Position numbers and translations under genes: made by a program
In this document: positions 14,453 through 23,132 of the stretch, one piece after another
Layout of the letters: every line of letters starts with the position of its first letter
How positions within the stretch are numbered: position 1 is the stretch's first letter
The notes under the pieces: model-generated
What the model was told of the DNA's origin: nothing
The model's database searches: none
The model's input: only the letters and a program-made list of their open reading frames with translations
From: Thermoplasmata archaeon
GTDB lineage: Archaea > Thermoplasmatota > Thermoplasmata > RBG-16-68-12 > JAJISG01
Reading direction: 5' to 3'
DNA: 64,000 nt
Assembly: GCA_046759185.1 (NCBI GenBank)
Contig: JBHIBO010000002.1
Location: forward strand, 16,986-80,985

Positions 14453-16450
14453 TCAGGTCGCCTCGAGCTCCCGAATCAAACGTTCGACCACCGAGGCATC
14501 AGCCAGCGTCGACGTGTCCCCGATGTCGTCCAGTTGCCCCCCCGTCATCTTCCGGAGGATGCGTCGCATGATCTTCCCGGAGCGCGTCTTCGGTAGGTCG
14601 TCACAGAACTGGATCTTGTCCGGCGAGGCGATGGGACCAATGTCGTGTCGCACGGTCCCCACGAGGTCCTTCCGCAGCGCGTCGGAGGGTTCCACCCCTT
14701 CCCGGAGGACGACGTAGGCGTAGATGCCCTGCCCCTTCACCTCGTGCGGATACCCCACCACCGCGGCTTCCACCACGCTGTCGTGGGAGACCAGGGCGCT
14801 CTCGACTTCCGCCGTGGCCAGGCGGTGGCCGGAGACGTTGAGCACGTCGTCAATGCGGCCCATGAGCCAGTAGAAACCGTCCTCATCGAGGCGGCAGCCA
14901 TCGCTGGTGTAGAACGTTCCCGGGAACCGCTCGAAGTAGACCTCCCTGACCCGCTCGTTCTTCGGGTCCCCGTAGACTCCCCGGATCATGCCCGGCCATG
15001 GCTTCGTGATGACCAGGGCCCCGCCTTCGTTCACCTCGGCGGGGGTTCCATCCGAACGAAGGATCTGAGGTTCCACGCCGAAGAAGGGCTTCGAGGCGGA
15101 GCCGGGCTTCGTGGGGATGGCCCCCGGCAAGGGGGTGATGAGGATACCCCCGGTCTCCGTCTGCCACCAGGTGTCCATGATGGGAGACCGCTCCTTCCCG
15201 ATGACCTCGTAGTACCACATCCACGCCTCGGGATTGATGGGCTCCCCCACGGTCCCCAGGACCCGGAGGCTCGAGAGGTCATGCTTGTTCGCCCACTCGT
15301 CCCCTTGCCGCATTAGCGCGCGGATGGCCGTGGGGGCGGTGTAGAACACGGTGACGCCATAGTCCTCCACAATCTTCCAAAACCGATCCGGCTGGGGGTA
15401 CGTGGGCACCCCCTCAAACATGAGGACGGTCGCCCCCAGGGAGAGGGGGCCGTAGACGATGTAGGAGTGCCCGGTGATCCAGCCGATGTCCGCGGTGCAC
15501 CAGTAGACGTCCTCGTCCCGCAGGTCGAAGACGAGCTTTGCCGTGAGGGTCACGTAGACCATGTAGCCGCCCGTGGTGTGCAGGACCCCCTTCGGCTTCC
15601 CGGTGCTTCCGCTCGTGTAGAGGATGAAGAGGGGGTCCTCCGCGTCCATCTCCTCAGGCGGGCATTCCCCCACGGCCCGGTCGCTGGCCATCTCGTCATC
15701 CCACCAGAGGTCCCGCCCCTCCTGGAAGGGGACGTCGAGCCCCAGCCGCCGAACGACGAGGACGTGCCGGACATCCGGACACCCCTCGAGGGCGACCTCG
15801 GCGCTGTCCCTAGGCCGGATGACCTTCCCGGCGCGCGTGTATCCGTCGGTCGTGATGAGGAACGTGGAGTGGCCATCCAGGATGCGGTTCCGCAGGGAAT
15901 CCGCGCTGAAGGCCGAGAAGACGACGGAGTGAATGGCGCCGATGCGCGCGCAGGCCAGCATGGCGATGGCGAGCTCGGGGATCATGGGGAGGTAGATGGT
16001 GACCGTGTCCCCGCGCCGGACCCCACGCCCCTTCAGGATGTTAGCGAGCTTGGTCACCTCCTCGTACAGTTGCTCGTAGGTGAAGGTCCGCCGGTCCTCC
16101 TCCCGTTCACCCTGCCAGATGATCGCAGGCTTCGTTCCTCGTCCCTCCCGGAGGTGACGATCCAGGCAATTGTAGGTCGCGTTGAGCTTGCCGCCGGCGA
16201 AGTAGCGGACAAACGGCCCCTGGAACTCGCCCACCCGCTCAAAGTCGTACCAGAGGACCTCGTCCCACTTCCGGAACCACTCGAGGGTCTCCTCCGCCTG
16301 TCTGGCCCAGAAGGCCTCCGGGGTTTCCACGGAGTCCCGGTAGAGTTGCTCATACTCCTCCAGGCCACGGACGTGGGCCTCGTTGCGCAGCGCTCTGGGA
16401 GGGGGAAAGACCCGCTCCTCCCGGAACATCGAGGCAATCTCCCGTCCCAT
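14453..16450 (-). CDS. acs: Acetyl-CoA synthetase (AMP-forming)
   Basis: [33 protein letters not shown]. Confidence 0.96.
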
Positions 16451-16549
16451 CCGTCGTCCACCAGCGGTCCGCCAACATTTGGGAGGCTACTTGAATCCTT
16501 GGGGGTGCATCATACCCCACTTTAAGGCGGCCGCGCTCATCTCGATCCC

Positions 16550-17713
16550 GTGGCCAAATCCCCCTCCCTCCTCCTCTACGACGAGGGGTACCTGGACTAC
16601 AACTTCGGACCGGCGCACCCCTTCCAGCAGGGCCGCGTCAAACTCGCCCGGGAACTCATCGACGGGGTGGGTCTCCTGGGACATCCGATGGCCCGGGAGG
16701 AGGCGGCCCTCCCCGCTTCCGAGGCACACCTCTTGCTCGCCCACGCCCCGGAGTACCTCGAGGTCGTGCAGCAGGCCGGCGAGAATCCCGCGACGGCGGG
16801 GATGCGCTACCTCGACTACGGCCTCGGGAGCGCCGACAACCCCATCTTCCCTCGCATGTACGAGGCCGCTGCCCTCCCCACAGGAGGTACCCTCGCTGCC
16901 GTCGACGCCGTGCGCCGGGGCGAGGCCCACAACGCCTTCAACCTCGGCGGCGGCTTTCACCACGCCCATCGCGCCCGGGCGTCGGGGTTCTGCATCTTCA
17001 ACGACCTCTCGGTGGCCATCCACCACCTCCTCCAGGAGGGCGTCTCACGGATCCTCTACCTCGACGTCGACGCCCACCACGGGGACGGGGTCCAATACGC
17101 CTTCTACGAGGACCCGCGGGTCCTGACCATCTCGCTCCACGAGGACGGTCGATACCTCTTCCCTGGGACGGGCTCTATCGACGAGGTGGGGGAGGGGGAG
17201 GGTGAGGGATACAGCGTCAACGTGCCCCTGCCCCCGCGGACCGGGGACGAGGCTTACCTCGATGCCTTCCGCGCCGTGGTGCCTCCCCTGGTCGAGGCCT
17301 TCGCGCCTGACCTCATCCTCAACCAGTTCGGGATTGACACCTACGTCACCGATCCCCTGACGCACCTCGGCCTCGGCACGTCCGCCCATCGGGCCATCGC
17401 CCAAGAGGCCCGGGCTCTCGCGGATCGGGTGTGTGGGGGACGATGGGTGGTGACGGGGGGCGGCGGCTACGAGCCCTCGGCCGTCGCGCGTGCATGGGCC
17501 CTCGTCTACGGGGTGATGCTCGGCGCCGGGATGGAGGACGCCATCCCCGAAGACGTGGCTTCGCTCCACCGCACCCTCTTTGGCGGCGACCTCGGGACAG
17601 GGGGCTTGGTCGACGATCCCCAACCCTCGACCCCCGCGGCCGAACGGGCCTTGGAAGGGGTCCTCGATCGGGTGAAAGCAACGGTGTTCCCCTTCCACGG
17701 ATTGGAGTCCTAG
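16550..17713 (+). CDS. acuC: Zn-dependent lysine deacetylase, AcuC/HDAC family
   Basis: HPF, GGFHHA, GFCIFND, DVDAHHGDG, SLHE, DPL, GGGGY. Confidence 0.92.
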   Translation: MAKSPSLLLYDEGYLDYNFGPAHPFQQGRVKLARELIDGVGLLGHPMAREEAALPASEAHLLLAHAPEYLEVVQQAGENPATAGMRYLDYGLGSADNPIFPRMYEAAALPTGGTLAAVDAVRRGEAHNAFNLGGGFHHAHRARASGFCIFNDLSVAIHHLLQEGVSRILYLDVDAHHGDGVQYAFYEDPRVLTISLHEDGRYLFPGTGSIDEVGEGEGEGYSVNVPLPPRTGDEAYLDAFRAVVPPLVEAFAPDLILNQFGIDTYVTDPLTHLGLGTSAHRAIAQEARALADRVCGGRWVVTGGGGYEPSAVARAWALVYGVMLGAGMEDAIPEDVASLHRTLFGGDLGTGGLVDDPQPSTPAAERALEGVLDRVKATVFPFHGLES

Positions 17714-18010
17714 GGGCCGCGGCTCGAGTGGGGAACGGGGTTGGCCTCCCTTGGGACAACGGTTATCGGGGAAAACGGTTAAATAAAAACCTCCGCATGC
17801 GCCGGCCGGGAATGCACTCTACGCGCCCCTCACTATCATCCCTGAGACTGGTGTCTCAACTGCTTTTAACCCCAAGCTTCAACGAGCGGCCCACGAGGCC
17901 GCGAGGCCACTTCATGGACTGGGATGAGATGCGAGAAGGGACCCGTTTTCGGAGCGCCGCCTCGCACGGCGTGACTCCCCGTCTCCCTGCAGCACAAAGG
18001 TTGGTGAAGG

Positions 18011-19606
18011 ATGGAACGAAAGCGCAAGAAGGACGAGGGCGAGGCGGAGAAGGAGCAATCCGAGAAGGTCGCGGATAAGCGAGCGGCGAAGATTCGGGAG
18101 GAGATGGAGGACCGCCTCGAGCGGCTGCGCTACCAGTACGAGCGCGAGCTCAACAACTTCCGCTACGAGATCCAGGAGCGGGATTACCGGCTGAAGGCCT
18201 ACGAGGACAAGTTCAACAAGATCAAGGAGCCGCCCCTCCTCTACGCCTACGTCGTCCGCAAGGGCGGCGAGGACCTCTCGGGGAACCAGGTCGTCGTGGC
18301 CCGGGCCAGCGAGATGCTGAAGGTCTCCGTGGGTTTCATCGACAAGGACGGCCTCGACATCGGCCAGTACGTCTGGGTTCACCCCCAGACCTACGCCATC
18401 GTGGAGGAGAGCCAGGAGGTCCACAAGGGCATCGTCGGCAAGGTCCAGGAGGTCCAAGAGACCAACCTCGTGGTCTCCATGGAGGGGGACCTGGAGAAGC
18501 GGATCATCAAGTGCGACGTCGAGACCGCGAAGACCATCAAACCGGGCTACCAAGTCTCCATCCTTCCACCGACCATGGAGATCCTCCAGGTCATGCCGGA
18601 CGCGGAGGTCAAGAGCCTCCTCTTGGGTGAGAAGCCCAACGTCACCTACGACCGGATTGGTGGGCTGGACGAGGCCATCGAGCGGATCAAGGACGTCGTT
18701 GTCCTTCCCTTCCAGGAGAAGAAGCTCTTCAAGAAGATCGACCTCAAGGCGCCCCGCGGCATCCTCCTCTACGGCCCGCCGGGCTGCGGCAAGACCCTCC
18801 TGGTCCGGGCCATCGCCACGGAGAACAACATGACGTTCTTCAACATCAGCGTGGCGGACATCCTCTCCAAATGGGTGGGCGAGAGTGAGCGGATCACCAA
18901 GGAGATCTTCCGACAGGCCCGGGATAAGAAGCCGAGCATCGTCTTCTTCGACGAGATTGAGGCCCTCTTCACCACCCGGGGCCTCTTGGACACCTCCGGC
19001 GTCCACAAGAACATCATCGCCCAGATCCTGTCGGAGATGGACGGCCTCATCGAGATGGAGGACGTCTTCGTTATCGGGGCCACGAACCGGCCCGACCTCC
19101 TCGACCCGGCCCTTATGCGGCCAGGGCGGTTCGACGAGATCATCGAGATCCCACGACCCGAACGGGACGCGGGGGAGATGATCCTGAGGATCTACCTGAA
19201 GAAGGGCCTCCCCATCGAGAAATCCTTCGTCGACAAGCACGGGGGCTACGACGAGGCCCACCAGAAGCTGCTGTTCTACGTCCTCGAGGAGCTCTACGCC
19301 CAGGACCGCTGGGTGAAGATGAAGGTGGACGCCGAGGCGAAAGAGTCCGTGAAGACCGTCAAACGACGGGACATCGTCTCGGGCGCCATCATCGAGGCCA
19401 TCGTGAAGACCGCGAAGAAGAACTTCGTGAAACGGGCCATCGAGATGCCGGCCAAGAAGCGAAGCGCGGCCGGCCTCTCCAAGGAAGACCTTCGCCTCGC
19501 TATCGAGGAGGAGTGCAAGGAACACGCCATCACGGAGATCTACATCTACGAGAAGCGGCAGCGCGAGGTCCGGCGGCAGAACGGCACCGACCCCATGGTC
19601 GGGTAG
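18011..19606 (+). CDS. arc: ARC/Mpa-type proteasomal AAA+ ATPase
   Basis: N-terminal coiled coil ending KIKEPP, two OB-like repeats, EKPNVTYDRIGGL, Walker A GPPGCGKT, Walker B IVFFDE, SRH TNRPDLLDPALMRPGRFD, and an Mpa-like C-terminal region (YLKKGLPI...ELYA...DIVSGAIIEAIVKTAKK); GGTGA RBS. Confidence 0.85.
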   Translation: MERKRKKDEGEAEKEQSEKVADKRAAKIREEMEDRLERLRYQYERELNNFRYEIQERDYRLKAYEDKFNKIKEPPLLYAYVVRKGGEDLSGNQVVVARASEMLKVSVGFIDKDGLDIGQYVWVHPQTYAIVEESQEVHKGIVGKVQEVQETNLVVSMEGDLEKRIIKCDVETAKTIKPGYQVSILPPTMEILQVMPDAEVKSLLLGEKPNVTYDRIGGLDEAIERIKDVVVLPFQEKKLFKKIDLKAPRGILLYGPPGCGKTLLVRAIATENNMTFFNISVADILSKWVGESERITKEIFRQARDKKPSIVFFDEIEALFTTRGLLDTSGVHKNIIAQILSEMDGLIEMEDVFVIGATNRPDLLDPALMRPGRFDEIIEIPRPERDAGEMILRIYLKKGLPIEKSFVDKHGGYDEAHQKLLFYVLEELYAQDRWVKMKVDAEAKESVKTVKRRDIVSGAIIEAIVKTAKKNFVKRAIEMPAKKRSAAGLSKEDLRLAIEEECKEHAITEIYIYEKRQREVRRQNGTDPMVG

Positions 19607-19615
19607 GAGAACGGA

Positions 19616-20911
19616 ATGCGGCCCCGGATCCAGGGAACGGAACACGAATACACGTTCTATTCGCGCAAGATGAGCCAGATGGGGGTCGATCCCCATATCC
19701 TCGGACTCGACTTGCTGAAGGAGAGCGACCTCCACAGCGCCGGCGAGTGGACCCAGAACGGGTCGCGCGCCTACTACGACGTCGGCCATCTGGAGATCTC
19801 CACCGCCGAGACCACCAACGCCCGGGACGTCGTCGTCTGGGAGAAGGCCGGGGAGAAGATCGTGGACTGGCTCCGGAAGATGGTGGAGGAAAAGTACCTC
19901 GGGCCTGACGTGAAGCTCTGGGCGTTCAAGAACAACACCTCCCCCGACGGGACCTCTTACGGGAGTCACGAGAACTACTGCGTGTCCCGGGACCTCGTCT
20001 TCCCCGAGGCCTTCGCCCGGGAGCTCGTGCCCCACCTGGTGACTCGGTTCACCTACACCGGGGCGGGGGACCTCATCGACCGGAAGTACGTCTTGTCCCC
20101 CATGGCCTATCTGACCTCGTCCTTGGTCAGCGGGGAGACGATGCACTCCACGGGCGTGCTGAACACCCGGGACGAGCCCCATGCGCTGCCCCAGCGATGG
20201 CGTCGGCTCCACCTCCTCGTGGGGGATGCCCTGATGAACGAGACGGCCATCCTTCTGCGCCACTTCACCACCTCCGCCATCCTCGACCTCATGGAGGACG
20301 AGGCCCTGGGGGACGTGCCCCGCCTGGAAGATCCCGTGAAGGACATGTGGCACAACGTGGAGCACATGAACCCGGAGAAGTGGAGGATGACCCTCAAGGA
20401 CGGCTCCCAGGTCTCCCCACTGGATATCCAGCGCTACTACCTGGCGAAGGTGGAGGAGGTTGTGGAGACCGACGAGGAACGGCGGACCCTGCGCCTGTGG
20501 GAGGAGGTCTTGGGTGACCTTGAAGCCCGCAAGTCCAAGGAGCTCGCCTCTAAGGTAGAGTGGCTCGACCGCTACTTCGCCATCGAAGAGGCGGCGGAGG
20601 AGAAGCGCGCCTTCGAGGTGGAGATGATGGCGTGTAAGCAGTACTCCGAGGTCGGCCAGGATCGGGGCCTCTATTACAGCCGGCAAGAGCAGGGGTTGCT
20701 GGATCGAGTCGCTACCGATGAGGAGATTCTGGAGGCGGTGTACGAGCCCCCCACTAACACCCGCGCGGCCCTGCGCCGCCGCCTTTGTGACGAGTACAAG
20801 GTCGTAGCCATCGACTGGTCCTACGTCGTCGTCGACGACGGAGGGCGAAAACGGATCAACCTACCCGACCCGTATGAAACCGAGCTGGAGGAATTGCTTG
20901 TCCCAGCGTGA
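19616..20911 (+). CDS. PafA/Dop family (Pup ligase/deamidase) protein
   Basis: RIQGTEHEY, NGSRAYYDVGHLEISTAE, FKNNT..GTSYGSHENY, NTRDEPHA, RRLHLLVGDA, PPTNTRA, DWS. Confidence 0.93.
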   Translation: MRPRIQGTEHEYTFYSRKMSQMGVDPHILGLDLLKESDLHSAGEWTQNGSRAYYDVGHLEISTAETTNARDVVVWEKAGEKIVDWLRKMVEEKYLGPDVKLWAFKNNTSPDGTSYGSHENYCVSRDLVFPEAFARELVPHLVTRFTYTGAGDLIDRKYVLSPMAYLTSSLVSGETMHSTGVLNTRDEPHALPQRWRRLHLLVGDALMNETAILLRHFTTSAILDLMEDEALGDVPRLEDPVKDMWHNVEHMNPEKWRMTLKDGSQVSPLDIQRYYLAKVEEVVETDEERRTLRLWEEVLGDLEARKSKELASKVEWLDRYFAIEEAAEEKRAFEVEMMACKQYSEVGQDRGLYYSRQEQGLLDRVATDEEILEAVYEPPTNTRAALRRRLCDEYKVVAIDWSYVVVDDGGRKRINLPDPYETELEELLVPA

Positions 20912-21074
20912 AGAAAGACCCCAGAAGAAGAAAAAGAAGAAGGAAGTCAAGGTCGAGTTCGAGGCCGGGAAGGTCTTCAAGCCCAGCGAGGCGAAGGATC
21001 AGGACTTCGAGCTGGACCTGGACTCGGCGAAATTTCAAGCGAGAAAGGGAGAAGGAGGCGACCGGCGAACCTAG
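20898..21074 (+). CDS. Putative Pup/UBact-like small modifier protein (58 aa)
   Basis: TTG start behind GGAGGA, overlapping the pafA/dop 3' end; highly charged and probably disordered; near-terminal FQARKGE aligns with Pup (Y/F)VQKGG(E/Q) and UBact YRQR(S/T)G(E/Q), followed by GGDRRT. Confidence 0.65.
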   Translation: MSQREERPQKKKKKKEVKVEFEAGKVFKPSEAKDQDFELDLDSAKFQARKGEGGDRRT

Positions 21075-21138
21075 CACTATCGCTAACCCCCGTGCCTAGC
21101 CCCTAACCCCTACTCTTGCTGGTCATGGTAGGGCCAGG

Positions 21139-21240
21139 ATGCTTTCTCTTGACTATCTAGCTGGGTTCATTGACAGCGGACGGAGACGCCGAGATTACAT
21201 GACCGCCGGGGACGAGCCCCCCATCCGAAATCGGTTCTGA
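21139..21240 (+). pseudogene. Degenerate LAGLIDADG homing endonuclease fragment
   Basis: ATG 21139 reads MLSLDYLAGFID; removing one base (~21175) continues ADGDAEIT; region is more AT-rich than its flanks. Confidence 0.5.
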
Positions 21241-21406
21241 ATTTCAAAAAACGCTCTACCGAAGAACGAGAGGACTCAACGCTCGGGGGAGTAAGGCCCT
21301 GGGCGGTTAGAGGTGTCACAGCACTGTGCCTCACCCTCCGTGCCCCTTCAATCGTGCCGCCAAATCTTTATTGCTCAGCCTCTCCCTTGAAACCCGAGGC
21401 AGGCTC

Positions 21407-22186
21407 ATGGGAAAGTTCATCGAGTTTGAGGTGGAGGACGGCGTCGGCGTCGCACGCCTGAACAAGCCCCCCGCCAACACGTACGATTATGCGCTCATGC
21501 GGGAGCTGGACGAGATCATCGAGGAGGTCCGTTTCAACGACGACGTGAAAGTGGCCGTCCTCGGCAGCAAGCTGGAGAAGTTCTTCTCCGCCGGGGCGGA
21601 CATCAAGATGCTCCAGCAGAGCGATCCCGATTACAAGGCGATGTTCTGCCTGCATTGCCAGGAGACCCTTGTGAAGATGGAGAACACGCCGAAGATCTGG
21701 ATCGCGGGCATGAACGGCCACGTCGTGGGCGGCGGTCTCGAGATCGCCCTCTCCACCGACATCCGGTTCATGGGCGAAGACAGCGGCCAGATCGGTCTGC
21801 CTGAGGTCACCCTGGGCGTTCTCCCCGGAACTGGAGGAACGCAGCGACTGCCCCGTCTCGTGGGCCGTGCCCGGGCCTTGGATATGATGATCACCGGCAA
21901 AACCCTCTCCCCGGACGAGGCCGAGAAGATCGGGCTCGTAAACTACGTGTATCCTATGGATGAGCTGTGGGACAAGACCATGGAGTACGCGTCCCGACTC
22001 GCCAACGGCCCGAGCCGCGCCGTCGGCCTCATCAAGCGTTCCGTGACGGAAGGCCTAGAGATTCCCCTCAAGCAGGGCCTCGCTCTCGAGCGAGAGCTGC
22101 AAAACCGCCTTTTCGCAACGAAGGATGCCCACGAGGGGCTCACGGCCTGGGTGGAAAAGCGGAAGCCGGTCTTCGAGGGGCAGTAG
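21407..22186 (+). CDS. Enoyl-CoA hydratase/isomerase family protein
   Basis: FFSAGADI, GGGLE, GLPEVTLGVLPGTGGTQRL. Confidence 0.92.
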   Translation: MGKFIEFEVEDGVGVARLNKPPANTYDYALMRELDEIIEEVRFNDDVKVAVLGSKLEKFFSAGADIKMLQQSDPDYKAMFCLHCQETLVKMENTPKIWIAGMNGHVVGGGLEIALSTDIRFMGEDSGQIGLPEVTLGVLPGTGGTQRLPRLVGRARALDMMITGKTLSPDEAEKIGLVNYVYPMDELWDKTMEYASRLANGPSRAVGLIKRSVTEGLEIPLKQGLALERELQNRLFATKDAHEGLTAWVEKRKPVFEGQ

Positions 22187-22189
22187 CCG

Positions 22190-23132
22190 TTATGGCAATT
22201 GGTCCATCACGTGGTCGTGGATGAGTTCCATCGACCGCCGTTCCCACCCCCTGGCGAACGCTAGGATCAGGTGCTGCGCCCCCGCCTCAATGAACTTCTA
22301 CCAAGGCCGAGGCCATCCCCTCAGGCTCCCCGAGGTAGCCGCGGCCCCCGACGGCCCGGATGCGCTCCTCCGGGGCTCCGAGGGTCTGGGCGAAGCTCTT
22401 GACCATGTCGTCCACCTGGGCGGCCTCCGCAACGAGGCCCCACGTGAAGTGGCTCCTGCCCATCTGGGAAAAAACCCGGCCCTCGTCCCTTGCGAACCGT
22501 CGCAGGGTCTCCATGCGTTCCCCGTACTCCTCCGCCGTGGGGAACGCACCAATGTTCACGCCGTCCGCCCAGCGGGCTGCAAGACGGAGAATCCGGTTTC
22601 CGCGGCCGCCGACCCACAGGGGCGGCCCCCCGTCCTGAATGGGCTTGGGGGCACAGACGGCATCTTGGACGGTGTAGTACTCCCCGTCGAAGTTCGCCTT
22701 GTCCTCGGTCCACATCTTCCGCAGGATCTGTAGGGCCTCTCCCATCCGATCGACGCGTTCGCGGTCCGAGGGGAAGGGGTAGCCGTAGGCGTTGTATTCC
22801 AGCTCCTTCCAGCCGGCCCCGATGCCGAACTCCAGGCGGCCGCGCGAGATGACGTCGAGAGAGGCGGCCATCTTTGCGAGGAGGCTGGGGTTCCGGTAGG
22901 AGTTGCTGGTGACCAGGGGCCCGATGCGAACCTTCGACAGGTCCGTCGCCAAGGCGGACATCAGGGTCCAGCATTCCAGGCAGTCCGTGTCCACCGCGTC
23001 CGCATTGAGCATGAAGTGGTCGCTGATGTGGAGGGTCGTGAACCCGAGCTCCTCGCAGGCCCGGCCCGTCTCCAGGACCTCCTCGTAGGTGTACCCGAAC
23101 TGCGGCTCGATCTGGACCCCCAGGGTAACCAT
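22190..23132 (-). pseudogene. LLM-class (putative F420-dependent) oxidoreductase, frameshifted near 22300
   Basis: SDHF, YRNPSLLAKMAASLD.IS.GRLEFGIGAGW; ORF stops at 22287 but an alternative frame continues KFIEAGAQHLILAF...DQLP to TAA at 22190. Confidence 0.75.

Follow-up and report, generated by a model that had tools for sequence, protein, structure and literature searches.

A pupylation-like operon in Thermoplasmatota archaea with a single PafA/Dop-family enzyme and a candidate tag carrying an internal Glu or Gln

The DNA analysed here is a stretch of 64,000 nucleotides (hereafter the window) from a Thermoplasmata archaeon. Its positions 18011–21074 (+) hold three coupled open reading frames (ORFs) on one strand, located as originally predicted, which encode an Mpa/ARC-like ATPase, one enzyme of the PafA/Dop family and a conserved charged protein of 58 residues, the candidate tag. 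The tag residue behind a conserved Lys-Gly pair was always Glu or Gln, and it is followed by a conserved tail. The enzyme keeps the catalytic motifs of its family and has lost two near-universal basic residues. Our reading, which we hold tentatively and with slightly less than even confidence, is that the operon may be an archaeal variant of pupylation in which the side chain of this internal Glu/Gln is used and the tail is kept.

The identities proposed for the three genes in the original prediction were confirmed by Pfam and NCBIfam scans and by conservation. In Pfam, the ATPase matched AAA (7.4e-42) and the enzyme matched Pup_ligase (PF03136; 1.7e-88, 298 bits against a cut-off of 25); no Pfam family matched the small ORF. 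The top NCBIfam model for the ATPase was pup_AAA (TIGR03689; 340.6 bits), and the enzyme matched PafA (TIGR03686; 261.4 against a cut-off of 551.3) and Dop (TIGR03688; 243.6 against 492.3), all of these scores being below the equivalog cut-offs. The tight coupling of the genes also holds as described. The enzyme gene starts after a gap of 9 nucleotides behind the ATPase stop, and the small ORF, whose frame spans 20874–21074, overlaps the end of the enzyme gene by 14 nucleotides when started at TTG 20898, which has a GGAGG 6 nucleotides upstream. Among 51 distinct tags in relatives, 47 start with ATG and four with TTG, all four belonging to close kin of the window. As the aligned start in the relatives is an ATG preceded by GGAGG, the 58-residue call from TTG 20898 is the right one.

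The candidate tag, the enzyme and their predicted complex

We collected 67 enzyme loci from species-representative genomes. All 67 record titles name archaea (Thermoplasmata, Methanomassiliicoccales, Thermoplasmatota, Methanobacteriota, Euryarchaeota, Thermoplasmatales and one Halobacteriales metagenome-assembled genome), and for some of the loci the contig is 388 kb to 1.1 Mb long. A synteny survey found the small ORF behind the enzyme in all 58 named loci that reach past the enzyme gene, in agreement with its expected conservation beside homologs; the remaining nine stop no more than 68 nucleotides beyond the enzyme match. The tags are 56–60 residues long in these loci, and their genes overlap or abut that of the enzyme. 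The small ORF is a real conserved gene under strong purifying selection: its frame, and no other, is kept 3' of the enzyme in 20 of 20 kin loci; variable sites in a 41-codon core fall 20/11/41 on the three codon positions; and the mean ratio of nonsynonymous to synonymous substitution rates is 0.088 over 209 pairs, with ratios above 2 in the two other frames.

The tag has a Lys-rich N-terminus, a core of the form LEFEAGKVF.P.E.K..DF.LDL.SA.F and the end KG[E/Q]GGDRR[T/A/S], which reads KGEGGDRRT in the window copy; it carries about 10 lysines. A profile search with the tag yielded 481 protein clusters at E ≤ 0.01, of which the best 120 are annotated as 'hypothetical protein', with '[Thermoplasmata archaeon]' as the organism wherever one is stated. 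The residue after the conserved KG is Glu in 35 and Gln in 23 of the 58 loci, and Gln in 60 and Glu in 60, with nothing else, among the representatives of those best 120 clusters. The two residues alternate between close relatives: locus L026 has Glu and L031 has Gln, though both enzymes are ∼90% identical to that of the window. Gln-type tags are also encoded by single-enzyme genomes, among them G023 (98% complete) and G051 (91% complete). The available part of PMC2588565 describes a G[EQ] signature at the C-terminus of all bacterial Pup orthologs, and in sequence the E/Q-only position of the tag is the same dichotomy as that described there for Pup's terminal residue.

The tag does not end in G[E/Q]. 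A tail of 6–9 residues always stands between this position and the stop, and all 58 loci have [GA]G[DT]R… there. In the main clade the tail is six residues, GGDR[RK]x, with GGDRRQALA in L067 as the lone exception among the loci, and it is exactly that six-residue form in 120 of 120 of the best cluster representatives. In a distant clade, whose enzymes are 52–55% identical, the tag reads KKGQAGTRT with 2–4 further residues, and the tail has 8–9 residues. Longer or fused forms of the tag were sought, and 14 such proteins were found; the eight that were read look like miscalled extended ORFs, except for P0313. This protein (121 residues, on a contig of 3139 nucleotides) has a distant-type tag in which KGQAGTR is followed by ∼60 acidic residues, a real-looking extension. 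If it is real, the reactive residue would lie far from the C-terminus in that lineage.

The small protein had been expected to resemble Pup or UBact in sequence, and this could not be upheld. In NCBIfam and Pfam scans at E ≤ 10, none of 26 tags matched Pup, UBact or any other family beyond chance-level hits to FecR, NUC153, FKBP_C and RDD1. The tag profile matched no chain among the PDB sequences at E ≤ 10, though Pup chains are present in PDB. The window's genome was also searched with the Pup models PF05639 and TIGR03687: the tag locus had no match at E ≤ 10, and one match elsewhere in the genome (E 0.5) was rejected as noise. ESM Atlas gave no usable match for the tag.

In the case of the enzyme, the family assignment was clear. 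Its PDB matches were Dop (1.4e-54) and PafA (1.6e-43), and 63 columns are conserved in at least 85% of 133 other members of the family, 51 of which the enzyme retains. The kept residues include E9, E11, D55, E60, H118, E119, R185, R197, H199 and D204, and the kept motifs are GxExEY, NGxRxYxD, HENY, NTRDE and RxH…GD; the residues aligned to the phosphate-binding R227 and H241 of Dop are also present. To judge from these residues, the enzyme looks like an active member of the PafA/Dop family. The available part of PMC8599861 describes a Dop loop of 40–65 residues before strand beta2 that every Dop has and every PafA lacks. All 10 archaeal rows shown have a GxExE-to-NGxRxYxD spacing of 41 residues, against 43 for a named actinobacterial PafA and 75 for a named Dop. 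By this motif spacing, the archaeal enzyme is without the Dop loop.

Searching 1.84 billion representatives gave 4506 relatives of the enzyme at E ≤ 0.001, with scores of 682 bits for the archaeal family, 331 for the protein P0130 and 245 for the next match. Unrooted trees were built with FastTree on 144 rows and with IQ-TREE (quick mode, mixture model) on 54 rows picked from those 144. The Thermoplasmatota enzymes formed one clade (100%), nearest to P0130 and then to P0139 and P0141, and a branch that has 100% support in the Shimodaira–Hasegawa-like approximate likelihood-ratio test separates this 12-row group from each of the 42 PafA-like, Dop-like and other rows. P0139 is annotated as 'PafA2 family protein [Nitrososphaerales archaeon]', and another cluster near the archaeal enzymes mixes KSB1 bacteria with a Hadarchaeum. 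Given the 100% separation from PafA-like and Dop-like rows, the enzyme is, on the basis of its sequence, a member of the family that belongs to neither named subfamily. The hidden Markov model and phylogeny check suggested at the outset thus gave a strong PF03136 match and a place outside bacterial PafA and Dop. Two scans of metagenome_contigs for relatives of P0139 and P0130 beside which tags could be read found none.

Two positions distinguish the archaeal clade from the rest of the family. The positions of M163 and T179 of the window's enzyme are M/S/C and T, respectively, in 11 of 11 Thermoplasmatota rows, and R/K in 133 and 132 of 133 other members, including the three nearest outgroup rows. 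They align to R205 and R221 of Dop. According to the available part of PMC8599861, the alpha-loop spans F208–K220 in Dop and H188–S200 in PafA, and R201 of PafA pairs with Pup's C-terminus in a salt bridge. Since R201 directly follows the alpha-loop as it is described there, and from the alignment with Dop, we infer that PafA R201, Dop R221 and T179 of the window are equivalent. The apparent loss of residues that face a free terminal carboxylate fits a reactive Glu in mid-chain.

We predicted the enzyme–tag complex from our own alignments (19 rows for the enzyme, 26 for the tag). The interface score ipSAE was 0.73, 0.73 and 0.74 in the three runs and 0.00 for all three controls; the mark used for this score is reached by 58 of 80 solved complexes and by 2 of 110 mismatched pairs. 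The runs share at least 66% of contacts, and the partner has a predicted local distance difference test (pLDDT) value of 51–54. The confident contacts join tag residues 15, 17–23, 25–35 and 37 with enzyme residues 33, 36–40, 81–89 and 338–376. Many of these enzyme residues are invariant within the clade and not conserved family-wide. The predicted complex thus supports binding of the tag by the enzyme.

The ATPase, the host machinery and the distribution of the operon

The best full-length model of the ATPase was pup_AAA, with residues 54–505 aligned to 24–482 of the 512 profile positions (cut-off 504.75); the PAN model scored 273.5 bits. Its AlphaFold2 model (mean pLDDT 65.6, a moderate value) has a helix at 2–71, strands in two blocks at 77–195, an AAA module from ∼205 to 400 and then a C-terminal helical part with a hairpin. 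In this model the long N-terminal helix is a candidate coiled coil, and the two beta blocks appear OB-like. Among the Foldseek matches listed for PDB, all down to rank 18 were Mpa of Mycobacterium tuberculosis (E ∼1e-28; 30–33% identity over ∼450 columns), and the first other protein was a 26S proteasome chain at rank 31 (E 1e-19).

The ATPase gene lies directly upstream of the enzyme gene in 44 of the surveyed loci, and 16 loci have too little upstream DNA. In L076, the gene upstream of the enzyme is a CBS-domain gene on the opposite strand. The OB region of the ATPase was found in 42 of the 61 genomes of the window's order, and in the same families as the enzyme (0 of 6 genomes in family f2 and 0 of 8 in f3). 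It occurs together with the enzyme in 39 genomes and both are absent from 17; the five discordant genomes are 73–86% complete.

All 42 ATPase C-termini that were read end in DPMVG. According to the available part of PMC6466877, Mpa docks on the alpha ring of the 20S core through a C-terminal GxYx. The tail of the archaeal ATPase carries no GxYx as described there.

A search of the window's genome confirmed that the host has machinery of its own, namely 20S subunits, PAN, Cdc48 and a SAMP-type cluster. Three proteasome-family genes are present, none linked to the operon; the nearest lies 46 kb away on the same contig, which agrees with the originally predicted minimal module lacking linked prcBA. 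Two genes are Cdc48-like, one of them ending in AYYR. The PAN-like ATPase (G000:C3:14969-16228) ends in TMFA, and the end of the Mpa-like ATPase (19589–19603) reads PMVG. Both ends consist of Met, a hydrophobic residue and a small residue, and neither has the Tyr of HbYX/GxYx; these sequences may point to an unusual docking motif in the lineage. A tight cluster on the minus strand (G000:C9:21517-22999) encodes a JAMM/MPN peptidase, a ThiS/MoaD-like small protein and a ThiF/E1-like enzyme. It is the canonical SAMP-type toolkit of archaea, so that the genome has two unrelated candidate tagging systems.

The window's genome (1.81 Mb in 79 contigs, 95.8% complete and 2.8% contaminated) contains one PF03136 gene (297.3 bits in a genome-wide search), so that the single enzyme copy expected from the locus was also observed genome-wide. 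PF03136 was present in 41 of the 61 genomes of the same order, including the window's own: 10/13 in family f1, 2/2 in f4, 24/26 in f5, 1/1 in f6 and 3/4 in f7, with 0/6 in f2 and 0/8 in f3. An even sample of the phylum gave 22 of 401 genomes. The other 21 all came from another class, and no listed genome of the window's class other than its own had PF03136 in this sample.

Logan contigs from three hydrothermal vent metagenome runs, two of which may be the source sample itself, span both junctions between the operon and its flanks at even depth. The left junction is bridged by X2 (15500–18223) and X3 (15975–18223), and the right one by X1 (19766–21654), X2 (19790–21700) and X3 (20198–21524). 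No run known to be RNA was listed for the locus; a further run, X13, which is RNA by guess only, gave just short 90–95% pieces of relatives, and no conclusion was drawn from it. The spread through the order, the 67 archaeal loci and the bridged junctions bear out the original view that the operon is a long-standing archaeal resident and not contamination.

Proposed mechanism and alternative explanations

In the mechanism that we tentatively favour, the single PafA-type enzyme would bind the small protein, which is largely disordered, by the conserved segment in its centre and, with ATP, would activate the gamma-carboxylate of the conserved Glu in KG[E/Q]GG. Where the gene encodes Gln, deamidation would precede activation. 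The side chain would then be joined to lysines of target proteins by an isopeptide bond, and the 6–9-residue tail (GGDRRx or AGTRT…) would be retained, the reactive residue being internal. The enzyme lacks the basic residues with which its bacterial counterparts face Pup's free C-terminal residue. The Mpa/ARC-like ATPase would recognise the tag, probably on its coiled coil, unfold the tagged protein and perhaps pass it to the host's own 20S proteasome. In the bacterial pathway, as the available part of PMC8599861 describes it, PupQ is first deamidated by Dop, and PafA then ligates the gamma-carboxylate of PupE to a lysine. As Gln-type tags occur in single-enzyme genomes, the archaeal enzyme would have to deamidate as well as ligate.

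Four departures, namely a tag unrelated to Pup in sequence, an internal reactive residue with a tail behind it, one enzyme with two residues lost and an ATPase without the docking motif, would make the system a pupylation-like variant that lies outside the Pup, PafA, Dop and Mpa equivalogs. A more far-reaching version, which we consider doubtful, is that Thermoplasmatota have an ancestral-type single-enzyme system, in which an enzyme without the Dop loop both deamidates and ligates through the internal Glu/Gln, the product is a mid-chain branch and the Mpa-like unfoldase reads the tag. We know of no protein modifier that forms a mid-chain branched conjugate. The Pup–ARC machinery may have arisen in archaea and then reached bacteria together with the proteasome, since a Nitrososphaerales sequence belongs to the enzyme clade, which is separate from every bacterial PafA and Dop sampled.

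Several observations weigh against conjugation through the internal residue. The conjugate itself is one that we infer from sequences and a predicted complex. The replacement of the two basic residues is just as compatible with an activity that is altered or gone. The tag has no sequence relation to Pup that our searches could detect, and its G[EQ] is never terminal, so that the reaction may be a different one or may depend on processing. The KG[E/Q] segment is outside the confident contacts, and since these are confined to tag residues 15–37, the model lends no support to placing the reactive residue in the active site. Complexes of PafA and of Dop with Pup have solved structures, and because the PafA–Pup complex has been solved, the score of the predicted complex may partly reflect likeness to it, although the tag and Pup have no detectable sequence in common. 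As for the ATPase, it is not adjacent in seven loci that have 1.2–4 kb of upstream DNA, all in a group with 52–59% enzyme identity. Of five genomes from this divergent group, two carry a full-length Mpa-like gene elsewhere, one carries it in pieces, and in the other two an Mpa-like ATPase was not found (completeness not stated). The DPMVG end seen in 42 of 42 ATPases differs from the GxYx tail as the available part of PMC6466877 gives it, and no proteasome gene is linked to the operon.

One alternative, which we judge unlikely, is that the tag is a precursor: a peptidase would trim the 6–9-residue tail to a terminal G[E/Q], PafA-like ligation would follow, and the ATPase would be the receptor. 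Ubiquitin and further modifiers are synthesised with an extension at the C-terminus that is later cleaved, which is a precedent for such trimming; JAMM/MPN-type peptidases are present in the genome; and the ∼60 residues behind KGQAGTR in P0313 fit cleavage more readily. A terminal G[EQ] is also the form of every Pup described in the available part of PMC2588565. However, the tail is conserved in sequence and fixed in length in the main clade, and is thus unlike a disposable propeptide. Moreover, no peptidase gene is linked to the operon, and the loss of the basic residues that face a free C-terminal residue would be unexpected if a terminal Glu were the substrate.

Improbable, too, is a role of the small protein as a non-covalent partner that serves the enzyme or the ATPase as, for example, regulator, adaptor, inhibitor or mimic of a substrate. 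In that case the enzyme would work on something else, for instance as an amidase or as a ligase for another gamma-glutamyl compound or protein, which we likewise hold to be improbable. Such a role would agree with confident predicted contacts that involve the central tag segment only, with the disappearance of two near-universal basic residues close to the active site, with an ATPase that has no proteasome-docking motif and with an enzyme–tag pair that lacks the ATPase in one clade. The strict E/Q-only position in 178 sequences is, however, hard to explain without side-chain chemistry, and the enzyme keeps its catalytic and nucleotide/phosphate residues. In addition, the translational coupling and 1:1 co-occurrence of tag and enzyme mirror what the available part of PMC2588565 describes for pup and pafA/dop.

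We regard it as very improbable that the small ORF encodes a precursor like those of ribosomally synthesised and post-translationally modified peptides, whose Glu/Gln would form an internal isopeptide or lactam with one of its own lysines. Carboxylate–amine ligases are able to make such bonds, and the peptide combines ∼10 lysines with one invariant Glu/Gln; against this, no transporter, protease or other gene of that type is linked, its partner is an Mpa-like unfoldase, and its high conservation across a phylum-level spread is unlike that of typical cores of such peptides. Finally, a bacterial contaminant or an assembly chimera in an archaeal bin is ruled out, despite a slightly lower G+C fraction at the locus (0.62 against ∼0.66 in the flanks) and the fact that the PafA/Dop and ARC families are known chiefly from bacteria, because the enzyme is present in 41 of 61 genomes of the order and in 22 of 401 of the phylum sample and all its loci carry archaeal titles, because both junctions are spanned at even depth by contigs from three runs, and also in view of the enzyme clade standing apart from every sampled bacterial member and of a flanking histone-deacetylase-family gene that is syntenic in 26 loci.

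Operon surroundings, significance and comparison with known systems

The features of the operon are given in Table 1.

Table 1. Features of the operon and of the region upstream of it (positions of the window)
Feature	Position	Strand	Description
Upstream intergenic region	17714..18010	+	A/T-rich box at 17779–17789 and GGTGA Shine-Dalgarno-like site, read from sequence
ATPase gene	18011..19606	+	531 residues, Mpa/ARC-like AAA+ ATPase
Enzyme gene	19616..20911	+	431 residues, single PafA/Dop-family enzyme, glutamine-synthetase fold, archaeal-type lineage
Candidate tag gene	20898..21074	+	58 residues, TTG start, stop at 21072–21074

The box upstream of the operon, TTAAATAAAAA, lies ∼220 nucleotides 5' of the ATPase start and is the sole A/T-rich box within a GC-rich spacer. 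From its sequence it is a candidate archaeal TATA box, which would imply a long leader. The GGTGA site is immediately 5' of the ATPase ATG. An Rfam scan over 16500–22500 gave two sub-threshold chance matches only, none of them in the upstream intergenic region.

The gene upstream of the operon (16550–17713, +) encodes an amidohydrolase of the histone-deacetylase family (Pfam Hist_deacetyl, 1.3e-90). It occupies this place, on the same strand, in 26 loci across families, with copies that are 45–80% identical, and in the window it lies back to back with an acetyl-CoA synthetase gene (14453–16450, minus strand). Enzymes of this family cleave N-epsilon-acyl-lysine amides, and acetyl-CoA synthetase is their usual partner. 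A de-tagging role of this amidohydrolase is conceivable; ordinary synteny is just as likely.

On the other side of the operon, a LAGLIDADG endonuclease-like gene of ∼310 residues with a double motif (Pfam LAGLIDADG_1 and LAGLIDADG_3) starts 60–71 nucleotides 3' of the tag gene in 30 of the 55 loci that have at least 600 nucleotides there. It is patchy among close kin, and its copies are 42–60% identical; intact ones are found, for example, at L026:1616-2569 and L043:5514-6443. The window has only a 12-residue LAGLIDADG remnant, MLSLDYLAGFID, at 21139–21174 (+). The fixed site and the patchy presence suggest a homing element aimed at the spot right behind the tag gene. Further downstream, at 22300, the contigs of all three DNA runs omit one base of the window, near the 3' end of a luciferase-like oxidoreductase gene (22287–23132, minus strand); the extra base may be an assembly error.

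A full-text literature search, whose coverage left out many subscription papers and supplements, found no paper on PafA/Dop, Pup or ARC in archaea. The reviews, in the parts available, treat pupylation as a bacterial trait, mainly of Actinobacteria, and describe archaeal tagging as SAMP- or ubiquitin-like. Automatic annotation already names some archaeal enzymes 'PafA2 family protein', and the tag is a 'hypothetical protein'.

If conjugation is true, archaea that are widespread in soil, sediment and vents would have a second, unrelated tagging route in protein turnover. The operon would then offer a natural test case for three questions: how E- and Q-type tags can both be handled by one PafA/Dop enzyme, whether the glutamate that reacts needs a C-terminal position, and where the partnership of Pup, ARC and the proteasome was born. 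A compact ligase that tolerates residues beyond the reactive Glu could, in the same event, widen the set of PafA/Pup proximity-labelling tools.

The actinobacterial Pup–proteasome system is similar in having a PF03136 enzyme with the catalytic motifs kept, in an ATPase to which the archaeal one is closest in sequence and predicted fold (Mpa), in a charged protein of ∼60 residues encoded beside the enzyme and in a Gly-preceded residue that is Glu or Gln only. It has both PafA and Dop, whereas the archaeal locus has one enzyme that has no Dop loop and falls outside both clades, with two near-universal basic residues replaced. The archaeal tag is not recognised by Pup models, and its G[E/Q] lies inside the chain with a conserved tail behind it. 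At the end of the ATPase, DPMVG stands in place of Mpa's GxYx, the locus has no proteasome genes, and the archaeal host has PAN, Cdc48 and a SAMP-type system of its own.

The UBact loci of Gram-negative phyla (Nitrospirota, Verrucomicrobiota and others) too are Pup-like modules outside Actinobacteria, with a tag divergent from Pup. UBact has [E/Q] at its end, and two PafA/Dop paralogues and prcBA belong to its loci; the archaeal loci have no terminal [E/Q], no second paralogue and no prcBA. The available part of PMC2588565 mentions sporadic Pup systems in Gram-negative phyla such as those of UBact.

PAN resembles the window's ATPase in its AAA module and, as far as the predicted structure of the latter goes, in having a coiled coil and an OB region; a PAN-like gene is also present in the window's genome. 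In contrast to PAN, the window's ATPase prefers the Mpa/ARC model (340.6 against 273.5 bits), its modelled beta-rich region (77–195) is longer, a further domain follows at its C-terminus, and Mpa makes up all of its top structural matches.

The SAMP/Urm1 system uses a beta-grasp modifier whose terminal Gly is activated by the E1-like UbaA, together with a JAMM peptidase. It is likewise small-protein tagging in archaea, and the window's genome has the JAMM–ThiS–ThiF cluster described above. Its fold and chemistry are, however, unrelated to those of the Pup-like module, which comes on top of this cluster and does not replace it.

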